This document shows, in pieces, positions 10,780 through 18,332 of a DNA stretch of 64,000 nt. The DNA is taken from the NCBI RefSeq assembly GCF_030013205.1, contig NZ_CP122648.1. One strand, 5' to 3'. Positions within the stretch are counted from its first letter, which is position 1, and each line of letters begins with the position of its first letter. Made by a program: the position numbers and the translations under genes. The notes under the pieces were generated by a model, which had not been told where the DNA came from, ran no database searches, and saw only the letters and a list, made by a program, of their open reading frames with translations. Source of the DNA: Escherichia coli (lineage in GTDB: Bacteria > Pseudomonadota > Gammaproteobacteria > Enterobacterales > Enterobacteriaceae).

Positions 10780-10987
10780 TATTGATAAACCTCATCACAG
10801 ATTTAAGGGTGAACAAATCTCTGCCATTGCTGACATATAAGAATGAAACTGGATATTTATTACGGTGCTGTTTTAAAATCCTGCCGGGATTTCGTTATCC
10901 TGGTGAATAACTTTATCGACCGGATAACAGTTGCCTGGAATTTTCTGTTCGGTTGCTGCGGCCATACATTCCGGTAATGACTCCAAC

Positions 10988-11491
10988 TTACTGATAGTGT
11001 TTTATGTTCAGATAATGCCCGATGACCTTGTCATGCAGCTCCACCGATTTTGAGAACGACAGTGACTTCCGTCCCAGCCTTGCCAGATGTTGTCTCAGAT
11101 TCAGGTTATGCCGCTCAATGCGCTGAGTATAACGCTTGCTGATAACGTGCAGCTTTCCCTTCAGGCGTGATTCATACAGCGGCCAGCCATCCGTCATCCA
11201 TACCACGACCTCAAAGGCCGACAGCAGGCTCAGAAGACGCTCCAGTGTGGCCAGAGTGCGTTCACCGAAGACGTGCGCCACAACCGTCCTCCGCATCCTG
11301 TCATACGCGTAAAACAGCCAGCGCTGACGTGATTTAGCACCGACGTAGCCCCACTGTTCGTCCATTTCAGCGCAGACAATCACATCACTGCCCGGTTGTA
11401 TGCGCGAGGTTACCGACTGCGGCCTGAGTTTTTTAAGTGGCGGAAAATCGTGTTGAGGCCAACGCCAATAATGCGTGCACTGGCGCGACAT
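10988..11491 (-). CDS. insB: IS1 InsB
   Basis: 167-aa ORF inside IS1, overlapping insA in the -1 frame. Confidence 0.9.
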
Positions 11492-11685
11492 CCGACGCCA
11501 TTCATGGCCATATCAATGATTTTCTGGTGCGTACCGGGCTGAGAGGCGGCGTAAGTGAACTGTAGTTGCCATGTTTTACGGCAGTGAGAGCAGAGATAGC
11601 GCTGATGTCCGGCGGTGCTTTTGCCGTTACGCACCACCCCGTCAGTAGCTGAACAGGAGGGACAGCTGATAGAAACAGAAGCCAC
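11410..11685 (-). CDS. insA: IS1 InsA
   Basis: 91-aa ORF inside IS1. Confidence 0.9.
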
Positions 11686-11833
11686 TGGAGCACCTCAAAA
11701 ACACCATCATACACTAAATCAGTAAGTTGGCAGCATCACCTACATTCCTGCATTGTTCTGTGAACACTGACTGCAATATCAACTGACTCTCCGGAAACAA
11801 GAAAAACCGTCAGAATAAGTGCAAATACTGGAT

Positions 11834-12127
11834 TCATTGTGCACATCCTTTTGGCATCAGACGTAAACGGGCCAGCATTGAAACAATGCATACTTTATTT
11901 AATAACTCCCGTTCGTGTTTTCTTTTGTTAATGGCCTCTTCAGTGAATACAGGATTACTGATAGTGACACCAATTTCAAAACAACCTTCAGACGTATTAA
12001 CGTTTGGTAATAACGTTTTCATTATCGCGCCCTCAACAATGAGTTTTGTGATGCGGTGCCTGGTGCCTCCAGGTGACGTTAACCAGTTAACAATTAACGC
12101 CGGATACAGAGAATCCACCCATAACAC
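11834..12127 (-). CDS. hypothetical early-left protein (start uncertain; an alternative ATG at 12022 gives 62 aa)
   Basis: ORF track; stop overlaps the start of the IS1-disrupted ORF; a GAGGG SD precedes the 12022 start. Confidence 0.35.
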   Translation of the reverse strand: MLWVDSLYPALIVNWLTSPGGTRHRITKLIVEGAIMKTLLPNVNTSEGCFEIGVTISNPVFTEEAINKRKHERELLNKVCIVSMLARLRLMPKGCAQ

Positions 12128-12582
12128 TGTTTTGGGTTTTAACTGTTCCGCGTGCGCTTAGCCGCATTCACCGCATCACAAAATTCACTTTAAAAATGGC
12201 GGCAGAGCAGTCACGGAGTAAAACTGATACCGCCAAACGTCACCAGAAAATTGATAACAGAGGGCGTTGCAGCGGGGTTGTCACTTAAGCGTATGGTCAA
12301 CCTGACAACCCGGTGTCCTCAACGGGGAAGGAATAACCTCGCCATACTTACCGCCGCGCCATTTCGCGGAGTGCCACAACCGGAAGCGCACGGTCGACGA
12401 AAATTTAACGACAGGCTATCTATGAACCAGCTACCTCGCCGTGCGCTTTCGCGTTATGGTCTGACTTTTCAGGGAAATATCCTTTCAGTAAACTGTCAGT
12501 GCCGGATGTTCACCCGTGTCCGGCGCACGCACTCCACCTCACCCGTGGAGAACTCCTTAATTACCAACCCTCAGGAGGGTGA

Positions 12583-12816
12583 ATGTTAAAATCAACTCTT
12601 ATTGCTAAATGCCTTTATCAAAATCGCATGGTAAGCAGCATTTCAATAGGCGAGTCTGCAGTTAAAAGTATTTTCGAAGAGTACTTCCCCGGGCATGATT
12701 TTAATAAATGGAATACCAAATTACCGCCAGCAGTTTCAACGCGTATTCTGAAATCAACTGAAAGAGCAAGTACAATTCGCGTTAACTATTTCATTAAAGA
12801 TTTGTGGGATCTTTGA
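12583..12816 (+). CDS. hypothetical 77-aa protein on the strand opposite to the early-left operon
   Basis: AGGAGG SD 4 nt before the ATG at 12583; AT-rich coding sequence in a GC-rich context. Confidence 0.4.
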   Translation: MLKSTLIAKCLYQNRMVSSISIGESAVKSIFEEYFPGHDFNKWNTKLPPAVSTRILKSTERASTIRVNYFIKDLWDL

Positions 12817-13201
12817 TATCCACAGAGCCTAAAGTATGTGCATATGGATGTGCTATTGTGCGCCCTCGCAGATTTGCATCATTTTCTAAATTCACTGAAC
12901 GAAACAGGGCATCAACAAGGCTCTGTACAATGCAAAGGCAATCGAAGACTGTCGCTGTTTCTGTTTTGATTGATGAAAGAACATGGCCATTCACGCAAAC
13001 AGAAATTACCCGTTCATTAACATCGCTTTCCTGCTTTTGATTATCAGAACCATATAGCCCAGAAAAAGCATTGCGCACATTACGAACCATATTATCGATG
13101 GTTTCTTTTTTGGTGTATGCCGGGTCAATTTTCACCAGACTATCACCGAGAGTCGTTGCAGCAATTGTCTGGATTTCTTTTGGTAAATCTTTAAATTCCA
13201 T
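12794..13201 (-). CDS. hypothetical early-left protein (135 aa)
   Basis: ORF track; lies in the leftward operon between repressor and exonuclease. Confidence 0.5.
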   Translation of the reverse strand: MEFKDLPKEIQTIAATTLGDSLVKIDPAYTKKETIDNMVRNVRNAFSGLYGSDNQKQESDVNERVISVCVNGHVLSSIKTETATVFDCLCIVQSLVDALFRSVNLENDANLRGRTIAHPYAHTLGSVDIKDPTNL

Positions 13202-13223: not shown

Positions 13224-13442
13224 TTAACGTGGGTATGTAATCATTCTGGCAATGCTTAATGCCGCTGCTTTTTCCAGATTGGTGATATCCTGCTCCAGAG
13301 CGGACAGATTTTCAGCCTGCTTAGCCCTGGCTTCATTGGCCCATTTCAGATCCTGCACTGCATTAATTTTCTGGCGCATCCACTTATAAAGTTCATCATC
13401 GGTATAGTCTGGCGCGATGATGACGGGTTCTCGTTTCTGCAT
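13224..13442 (-). CDS. hypothetical early-left protein (72 aa)
   Basis: ORF track; same operon context. Confidence 0.45.
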   Translation of the reverse strand: MQKREPVIIAPDYTDDELYKWMRQKINAVQDLKWANEARAKQAENLSALEQDITNLEKAAALSIARMITYPR

Positions 13443-13471: not shown

Positions 13472-13600
13472 TCAGCCGTTAGATTTTGCCGAACTGGAAA
13501 GCGCCTGTTTAAACTCACTGAAGCTGAGAGCTTCTTCGCCTTCGGCAAGTCCTTCGAAGTATTCTTCGTAAGCCTTTTCCATGATTGTGTCGAAATCCAT
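13472..13600 (-). CDS. hypothetical small protein (42 aa, MDFDTIMEKAYEEYFEGLAEGEEALSFSEFKQALSSSAKSNG)
   Basis: Found by manual translation; AGGTGAG SD upstream of the ATG at 13600; fills the gap between neighbouring ORFs. Confidence 0.3.
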   Translation of the reverse strand: MDFDTIMEKAYEEYFEGLAEGEEALSFSEFKQALSSSAKSNG

Positions 13601-13601
13601 A

Positions 13602-13838
13602 TTACTCACCTGAGTTTCTTTCCAGCCAGCGACGCGCGCCAGATTCGGTTTTAAACGTTTTGCTTTTGGTATACGTCATCGCGGTGAACGTGCCGTCCTG
13701 GTTGGGAAACACGCCGTATACCAGAGATTCGTTGTTGCCAAGATCGATAGTATCCATGCTGACCTCATTTCCCCTTAACGCCGGGGTAGCGGAACAAAAA
13801 CCTGCTGCATAGTTATTAAAGTTGAACCCTGCCGTCAT
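13602..13838 (-). CDS. hypothetical early-left protein (78 aa), first gene after the left operator
   Basis: ORF track; GAGG SD upstream of the ATG at 13838. Confidence 0.4.
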   Translation of the reverse strand: MTAGFNFNNYAAGFCSATPALRGNEVSMDTIDLGNNESLVYGVFPNQDGTFTAMTYTKSKTFKTESGARRWLERNSGE

Positions 13839-13939: not shown

Positions 13940-13982
13940 AGGATACCCATAGGTATTTAAAAGTAAATACCCATGGGTAACT
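13940..13982 (-). promoter_or_regulatory. left operator/promoter region (two palindromic 14-mers)
   Basis: atacccataggtat (13943-13956) and the perfect palindrome tacccatgggta (13968-13979), downstream of the repressor gene and upstream of the leftward operon. Confidence 0.5.
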
Positions 13983-14021: not shown

Positions 14022-14441
14022 CTATGATGCGTTTTGTGCTTTCTTTTTACGGATTTCTTCGTAGATCATATTGTAATACTGTTTTTTCTCTTCAAGAGTT
14101 TTTAATAAGTTATCCGCTTCACTTTCTGGCAGTTCGTCTAAGAGATCTAAAAAAATACGTTGTCGTGGCGTTAGAACCCTTGTTTCATAACTGGAGGCTG
14201 TGTTCGTTGATGATGAAACGATACCATCCATCCATCCCCGGGGTAACCCAAAGGACTCTTCGATAATCTCCACCATATCATCAGCGATCCGTTTTTTTCC
14301 CTTTTTCCCCTCTGGGTACAACATTCTTGATACATAAGAAGGCTCGCGCCCGATCTTTCTGGCCACGTTAACCGCTTTACCATCGCATTTCTCATCACGA
14401 ATTTTGATGAGTTGCTGTCGTCTAAATTCATATTTGTCCAT
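14022..14441 (-). CDS. prophage repressor (HTH, CI/RacR-like)
   Basis: 139-aa ORF with an N-terminal helix-turn-helix (KAVNVARKIGREPSYVSRML); flanked by operator palindromes and divergent from a cro-like gene. Confidence 0.6.
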   Translation of the reverse strand: MDKYEFRRQQLIKIRDEKCDGKAVNVARKIGREPSYVSRMLYPEGKKGKKRIADDMVEIIEESFGLPRGWMDGIVSSSTNTASSYETRVLTPRQRIFLDLLDELPESEADNLLKTLEEKKQYYNMIYEEIRKKKAQNAS

Positions 14442-18245: not shown

Positions 18246-18332
18246 TGCGGGTGCTTGAGGCTATCTTCCTCTGATGTGTCAGGCATCCTCAACGCACCCG
18301 CACTTAACCCGCTTCGGCGGGTTTTGTTTTTT
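18246..18332 (+). terminator. long imperfect hairpin followed by an intrinsic terminator
   Basis: tgcgggtgcttgagg...cctcaacgcacccgca (18246-18302), then cccgcttcggcggg plus a T-run (18306-18332). Confidence 0.5.

Follow-up and report, generated by a model that had tools for sequence, protein, structure and literature searches.

IS1 insertion into a ydfD homologue in the dicBF operon of a Qin-like prophage remnant of Escherichia coli

The window analysed here is a stretch of 64,000 nucleotides of Escherichia coli DNA, numbered from its first letter. It carries a prophage remnant of about 20 kb, which begins at a tRNA-Ser gene and ends at a terminase large subunit gene directly followed by the host gene zinT (about window 26800). 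The features of the left part of this remnant that frame the interrupted gene are as follows.

6909-6995, plus strand: tRNA-Ser (Rfam tRNA, 57 bits; also annotated as tRNA-Ser), which marks the left attachment boundary of the remnant
7051-8076, minus strand: tyrosine integrase gene (int), an ORF of 341 aa
8076-8279, minus strand: DUF4224 gene, 67 aa, between exo and int, at the position expected of an excisionase (xis)
8338-10779, minus strand: exonuclease gene (exo), 813 aa, directly downstream of the interrupted gene, RecE-type in its N-terminal region and ending in a DEDD Rv2179c-like domain
11834-12022, minus strand: dicB, 62 aa, cell-division inhibitor, intact (Pfam DicB, E=2e-38; NCBIfam CellDivInhibDicB, 130.7 bits, cut-off 100; also annotated as dicB)
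12197-12248, minus strand: DicF small RNA (Rfam RF00039, 73.4 bits, gathering score 48)
12794-13201, minus strand: ORF of 135 aa with no assigned function, an upstream operon gene
13224-13442, minus strand: ydfC, an upstream operon gene
13472-13600, minus strand: ydfB, an upstream operon gene
13602-13757, minus strand: DUF1391/ydfA-like gene, an upstream operon gene
14022-14441, minus strand: putative immunity repressor, 139 aa (phrog_5736 transcriptional regulator, E=4e-70), in the DicA/CI position by synteny with Qin

Because DicB, DicF and ydfA/B/C could all be identified, we assign the locus to the dicBF operon of a Qin-like lambdoid prophage. These elements share one orientation and lie downstream of a repressor/Cro-like divergent pair, the arrangement of a Qin-type dicBF operon. 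The putative repressor matches the DicA C-terminal model weakly (23.9 bits, below the cut-off), and a YdaS/YdaT-like divergent pair lies beyond it. For dicB, a 97-aa version extended to a GTG start was considered and set aside; the correct start gives 62 aa. A first-pass annotation of this DNA had placed the interrupted gene in an early-left operon, which agrees with the DicB/DicF/ydfA/B/C context; the ORF is a conserved one, with the DUF1482 homologues described below. The same annotation had called the downstream nuclease gene RecE-like, which is apt for about the first 600 residues and fails at the catalytic end. The protein aligns to the NCBIfam RecE equivalog only over positions 1-603 of 877 (939 bits against a cut-off of 1269), while its C-terminus belongs to the Pfam Rv2179c-like family of DEDD 3'-5' exonucleases (E=5e-66); a full-length match to RecE (exodeoxyribonuclease VIII) that includes the catalytic C-terminal nuclease domain was not obtained.

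Between exo and dicB the operon is broken by an insertion sequence, whose parts, together with those of the gene that it splits, are listed below.

1-402, minus strand: second IS1 copy, partial, cut by the window start, 100% identical and in the same orientation
10873-10972, minus strand: 3' fragment of the ydfD homologue, residues 30/33-62 and the stop codon (PGAP 'DUF1482 family protein, missing N-terminus')
10965-10972: left copy of the target-site duplication, TACATTCC, present as a single copy in the EC556 empty site
10973-11740, minus strand (transposase genes): complete IS1, 768 bp, recognised by its inverted repeats, Pfam domains and frameshift motif
10988-11491, minus strand: insB reading frame, 167 aa (Pfam DDE_Tnp_IS1, E=1e-74)
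11410-11685, minus strand: insA, 91 aa (Pfam Zn_ribbon_InsA, E=3e-21; HTH_Tnp_IS1, E=4e-28)
11736-11837, minus strand: 5' fragment of the ydfD homologue, residues 1-32 and one Arg codon (PGAP 'DUF1482 family protein, missing C-terminus')
11741-11748: right copy of the target-site duplication, TACATTCC

The 768-bp element is bounded by the terminal repeats GGTAATGACTCCAACTTACTGAT and GGTGATGCTGCCAACTTACTGAT, with IRR at 10973-10995 and IRL at 11718-11740 of the window; the two are identical at 18 of their first 23 positions (counted by eye on the printed alignment), and the IS1 end pattern fits either end with 0 mismatches. Three Pfam domains (PF03811, PF12759 and PF03400) cover the transposase genes, which are co-oriented with the interrupted operon. 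An A6C frameshift motif (AAAAAAC, about 11428-11434) is present between the insA and insB frames, and as judged from this motif the InsAB' transposase would be made from the insB frame by a -1 frameshift there; at the identical locus the RefSeq/PGAP label reads 'IS1 family transposase, programmed frameshift'. Length and imperfect ends, insA/insB with the A6C motif, and a short duplication paired with an empty site all place the element in the IS1 family. A perfect 8-bp repeat flanks it and the ninth base mismatches; by simple arithmetic, chance would produce 8 matching bases at two fixed boundaries about once in 65,000 cases. Target duplications of 9 bp are commoner for IS1, and 8 bp lies inside the known range. 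The boundaries, Pfam domains, repeat copies and empty site thus bear out the earlier description of a complete IS1 at 10973-11740 that arrived by simple insertion.

When IS1 and one copy of the repeat are removed in silico, a 62-aa minus-strand ORF beginning MNPVF and ending IPAGF is restored, exactly the sequence that had been predicted and the one that is intact in strain EC556. The interruption falls after codon 32, directly 3' of the codon for C32, so that the ORF is now 33 codons long and ends at a TGA inside the IS1 end. Start and stop codons are fused as ATGA, with the ATG of this ORF at 11837-11835 and the TGA of its upstream neighbour at 11836-11834, both on the minus strand; this overlap and the 33-codon remnant, both part of the first description, can be read directly in the sequence. 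The 5' fragment keeps the hydrophobic N-terminal domain. RefSeq marks IS1 and two DUF1482 pseudogene fragments at identical loci, and to that extent the interruption is already known.

The identity of the split gene emerges from profile and pairwise comparisons. The reconstructed ORF scores 85.2 bits against Pfam DUF1482 (PF07358; gathering cut-off 25), matches phrog_1092 with E=5e-35, and is identical to K-12 YdfD at 55 of 63 residues (87%, E=1e-40). C32 and C45 are invariant in an alignment of five sequences (E. coli and Klebsiella homologues, one from a Klebsiella phage included), and two conserved cysteines have been reported for YdfD (PMC8835842). Phage records of Salmonella, Citrobacter and Klebsiella contain DUF1482 homologues with identities down to about 40%. 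Gene order points the same way: dicB, a 4-nt overlap, ydfD and an exonuclease gene follow one another in K-12 and in the E. coli phage records PPompW and vB_EcoS-689R5, and in the Klebsiella phage the DUF1482 gene is preceded by another small ORF with the same 4-nt overlap and is followed by an exonuclease gene. On these comparisons the interrupted ORF is recognisable as a YdfD homologue; in E. coli K-12 this lysis protein is encoded by prophage Qin and has been characterised by experiment. The NCBIfam profiles contain no model for YdfD, and Pfam and PHROG scans of the ORF returned only DUF1482 and phrog_1092, with no match to a Kil family. The suggestion that a kil-like toxic gene had been hit is therefore right in kind, in that a homologue of YdfD would be a host-toxic early gene, and wrong as to sequence family; the label changes from an unknown kil-like gene to the characterised lysis gene ydfD.

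Alignment to relatives that lack the element, proposed at the outset as the check on the reconstruction, supplied the empty site. The restored 725-nt sequence is present, uninterrupted and 100% identical, in the pig strains EC556, EC571 and EC581 among the matches listed, all of which have this remnant, and the EC556 annotation shows a 62-aa DUF1482 protein with the predicted sequence. Among the matches listed, 14 independent complete genomes reproduce both IS1 junctions at 100% identity; all 14 carriers come from pigs or wild boar and are ETEC or O139:H1, and the records that were opened are from South Korea and the Netherlands. These observations bear on the possibility that the structure is an artefact, a mis-assembly or chimeric join at a repeated element, which deserves thought since IS1 is multi-copy (IS1-end matches fall at about 20 places per genome in the insertion-bearing genomes) and is a usual source of assembly errors. 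Given junctions shared by 14 independently assembled genomes, a perfect flanking duplication and an excision product identical to the ORF of a sister strain, we regard the chance of an artefact as negligible. There is no evidence that contradicts either the insertion or the identity of the gene.

The element has also taken part in later rearrangement. In ETEC6333, ETEC6334 and P15-25 some 16 kb separates the halves of ydfD, which stand in inverted orientation, and in ETEC6333, the one of these records that was opened, each half abuts an IS1 copy. An IS1-adjacent deletion was considered for ETEC6333 and rejected, as a search with the left junction revealed an inversion of about 16 kb with an IS1 copy at both ends. 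The IS1 copy in ydfD has thus later served as a breakpoint of a roughly 16-kb inversion in three descendant strains.

Comparison with EC556 also shows the state of the prophage before IS1 entered it. Window and EC556 are 99.88-99.98% identical per aligned block over about 22 kb, and their only structural differences are the IS1 in ydfD, a 332-bp hokD segment and ISCro1. EC556, which is free of this IS1, is truncated at the same place, after the terminase large subunit, and its integrase bears the same frameshift flag. The remnant has no head or tail genes, and no copy of the attL region of at least 13 nt was found near the right boundary. From the shared truncation and the missing attL-region copy in the window it follows that the prophage was already a remnant, and by parsimony IS1 would have arrived later than the loss of the right end and of the morphogenesis genes. 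The PGAP 'frameshifted' flag on the integrase was considered as proof of lost excision and discarded: it occurs in every relative examined, including O157 alleles that are about 94% identical, and the identical 341-aa integrase ORF is annotated as intact in one phage record. Since the flag is uninformative, remnant status rests on the missing right attachment site (attR) and structural genes. The proposal that the insertion was a route to prophage domestication finds no support in this comparison, for the truncation is shared by the IS1-free sister, the window lacks an attL-region copy, and other toxic and lytic genes (dicB, DicF, two holin genes and an endolysin gene) are intact in the remnant.

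What the insertion did to the gene product can be gauged from work on the K-12 protein. Expression of K-12 ydfD causes fast, near-total lysis, which requires cell division and is blocked by co-expression of DicB or SulA (PMC8835842). The partner of YdfD is IspG, an enzyme of the MEP pathway; in vitro IspG is bound by the N-terminal domain (residues 1-28), which is non-functional alone in cells (PMC8835842). YdfD lacking 1, 2 or 5 residues at either end lets cells survive an induction that is lethal with intact YdfD, as do both of the point mutants tested (PMC8835842). As one-residue terminal deletions already allow survival in K-12, the loss of residues 33-62 here should leave YdfD inactive; by this analogy the product that can still be made, residues 1-32 plus an Arg, should be a non-functional one. 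The lytic nature of the intact 62-aa allele is likewise presumed from K-12 YdfD, from which the allele differs at the C-terminus, where the K-12 mutants lost activity.

We consider it very probable that an ordinary IS1 insertion inactivated the ydfD homologue of an already defective Qin-like remnant, as late and essentially neutral erosion. IS1 would have transposed by its ordinary route into codon 32/33, leaving the 8-bp target duplication; YdfD would have been inactivated, with only its N-terminal domain still made; and the event would belong to the near-neutral decay of a remnant in an IS1-rich genome, with no selected taming step.

The weak part of this explanation is neutrality, and it is here that adaptive detoxification comes in, whereby the insertion was selected for removing a self-lysis toxin while useful DicB and DicF were kept free of the risk of YdfD lysis. 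The strong lytic effect reported for the K-12 protein (PMC8835842) would give such selection an object, and the allele is shared by the 14 pig ETEC/O139:H1 genomes listed. The 332-bp segment that carries the toxin gene hokD has been lost from the remnant in the same lineage. In addition, ydfD of the unrelated human isolate 21319 has been cut short at codon 51/52 by IS1B, in an independent event that left an 8-bp duplication of its own, TTATCGAC; the orientation matches the one seen here. The hokD loss and the 21319 insertion are suggestive, and far from a demonstrated excess of disruption. Several observations weigh against selection. The putative repressor is intact, so the operon is presumably silent; dicB, whose co-expression blocks YdfD lysis, is intact directly upstream; and DicB, DicF, two holins and the endolysin have all been left untouched. 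Sister strains without IS1 retain an intact ydfD, and a 725-nt dicB-ydfD query finds a place covering at least 80% of its length, uninterrupted or nearly so, in 3,769 of 5,426 complete genomes, which together hold roughly 10,800 dicB-ydfD loci. The same query has four places in the chromosome that carries the insertion, so that further dicB-ydfD copies probably remain there. Finally, unrelated strains carry IS1 at other sites of the operon: in LR-06 it lies upstream of dicB, in TW10573 within exo. This fits untargeted insertion into dispensable DNA. Taken with these points, selection for detoxification seems to us unlikely.

A wider form of the same thought is that selection in the pig ETEC/O139:H1 lineage has favoured loss of the self-killing modules of this remnant, ydfD by IS1 and hokD by the 332-bp deletion, and retention of DicB and DicF, for which effects on cell division, metabolism and phage resistance have been reported. 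We hold this to be rather improbable; were it true, the near-isogenic IS1-free strains EC556, EC571 and EC581 would offer a natural experiment that shows what a lysis gene in a cryptic prophage costs its host in fitness.

The insertion of IS1 into a gene of the operon may also affect what lies downstream. A scan of the interval from the ydfD stop to the exo start predicted neither an intrinsic terminator nor a sigma-70-like promoter, and RNA of this interval is no more stably folded than its shuffled versions. Expression of exo, of the DUF4224 gene and of int therefore most probably relies on transcripts that run through ydfD. IS1 is polar in both orientations, and a polar effect on exo, xis and int is plausible and indeed likely. 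Operon transcripts entering the element would mostly be lost before reaching these genes, for past the short insA ORF roughly 400-500 nt of mostly untranslated insB RNA would be exposed to Rho. In K-12, transcripts beyond ydfD are undetected even without such an IS, although ydfE itself is damaged there (PMC10448788). Urea and high temperature have been reported as stresses that induce the operon (PMC10448788). Whatever its extent, this polarity would be of little consequence, because the window has no attR and expression of int hardly matters. In the three strains with the inversion the question is moot, as exo, xis and int have been moved physically away from the operon.

The opposite effect has also to be weighed, in which an IS1 promoter reads toward exo-xis-int and uncouples these genes from the repressor, or the 3' end or stability of the dicB mRNA is altered. 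A promoter-like site of insA (11733-11706, minus strand) is co-oriented and points toward exo, and the insertion follows the dicB stop codon at a distance of only 96 nt. Against this, insA has a weak, autorepressed promoter, IS1 is classically polar, and no outward promoter-like site, hybrid promoters included, was predicted at the IRR end or the junction. Such regulatory rewiring is, in our judgement, very improbable, and near-neutral erosion by an ordinary IS1 insertion remains the reading that we prefer.

The finding has little importance beyond bookkeeping. Its value lies in being a clean and datable case of the continuing erosion of a cryptic prophage by IS activity, framed on one side by a sister strain with an empty site and on the other by later IS1-mediated inversions. 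If the disruption had been selected, it would lend modest support to the notion that hosts disarm prophage toxins while keeping dicB and dicF.

Among known systems, the closest counterpart is K-12 ydfD (b1576) in the Qin prophage. The two are nearly equal in length (62 versus 63 aa) and share the DUF1482 domain, the 4-nt overlap with dicB, DicF upstream and an exonuclease gene downstream, and the K-12 dicBF operon runs ydfABC-dicF-dicB-ydfD-ydfE. The intact allele of the present lineage is one residue shorter near the C-terminus than K-12 YdfD, and its final residue is F in place of L. The damage is also distributed differently: in K-12 ydfD is intact, while the ydfE exonuclease gene and the integrase gene are damaged by an IS2 remnant, whereas here it is ydfD that has been split, by IS1. 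The prophage itself sits at tRNA-Ser beside mtfA, away from the Qin site. The element conforms to classical IS1 in its 768-bp length, imperfect repeats, insA/insB with the A6C motif, 8-bp duplication and later IS1-associated inversion. With lambda Kil and Rac KilR the split gene has in common that it is a small, presumably host-toxic early-left gene of a lambdoid prophage, presumably silenced by the immunity repressor. It differs from them in its mode of action, since YdfD is reported to bind IspG and to lyse the cell, with no block of FtsZ (PMC8835842); the division inhibitor of the present operon is DicB, which IS1 has left untouched.

IS1 has interrupted ydfD homologues (DUF1482) more than once. 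In the human isolate 21319, an IS1B element (L017 2785-3565, NZ_CM190150.1) lies at codon 51/52 of such a homologue. A duplication of 8 bp (TTATCGAC) flanks it, its orientation matches that of the complete IS1 that splits ydfD in the window's Qin-like remnant, and this insertion is an independent event. It leaves a chimeric 56-aa ORF, which the RefSeq annotation (PGAP) labels as an intact DUF1482 protein.

Within the lineage that carries the window's ydfD insertion, the disrupted gene has undergone further change. In ETEC6333 (L016, NZ_CP122600.1 1983097-1999675), ETEC6334 and P15-25, about 16 kb separates the halves of ydfD, and these are mutually inverted. The arrangement is the product of an IS1-mediated inversion; in ETEC6333 an IS1 copy abuts each half. 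The inverted segment holds exo, xis, int, tRNA-Ser and mtfA together with flanking host genes. The window also contains a second IS1 copy (1-402), clipped by the window start, that shows 100% identity to the one in ydfD, has the same orientation and adjoins a truncated Ig-like (yeeJ-type) gene. If these two copies recombined, asnT, mtfA, tRNA-Ser, int, xis and exo would be lost.

A second toxin gene is also gone from the window's remnant. Comparison with the otherwise near-identical remnant of EC556, an IS1-free sister strain, revealed that a 332-bp segment (L006 11726-12057), which carries hokD (a type I toxin gene) and the region upstream of it, is missing at window ~18268-18271, where the junction carries a 4-bp microhomology (CCTC). 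The remnant, about 20 kb in size, has no head or tail genes and ends abruptly at window ~26800-27190, with the terminase large subunit gene followed by the host gene zinT; no repeat of the attL region was found at this right end.

Two features lie in the upstream part of the operon region:

Window 13944-13979, minus strand: near-perfect palindrome with a 16-bp stem (TACCCATGGGTATTTA/TAAATACCTATGGGTA).
Window 12583-12816, plus (opposite) strand: 77-aa ORF, annotated as hypothetical in RefSeq.

The palindrome lies directly downstream of a putative repressor gene, on the upstream side of the operon, and could be either the terminator of that gene or an operator. The 77-aa ORF, which has no Pfam match, sits between DicF and a 135-aa ORF whose 3' end it overlaps.

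In all relatives examined, O157 alleles with ~94% identity among them, PGAP labels the integrase gene (window 7026-8076) "frameshifted"; the phage record ON470583 lists the same 341-aa ORF as intact. When aligned by eye with the HxxR motif of lambda Int, the corresponding box reads HDLK. The 813-aa exonuclease (window 8338-10779) has a mosaic structure: it matches RecE (exodeoxyribonuclease VIII) over the N-terminal ~600 residues, and its C-terminal catalytic part is a DEDD-type Rv2179c-like 3'-5' exonuclease domain. On the minus strand 5' of its start codon, in the ydfD-exo intergenic region (window ~10790-10845), lies a ~55-nt block, ATGYCAGCAATGGCAGRGATTYGTTCAYCCTKAAATCTGTNATGAGGTT, in which no promoter was predicted and which is not a terminator. 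This block may be an untranslated leader or processing element, and it is kept, despite divergence of the adjoining sequence, even in PPompW, an E. coli phage record with the same dicB-ydfD-exonuclease order.
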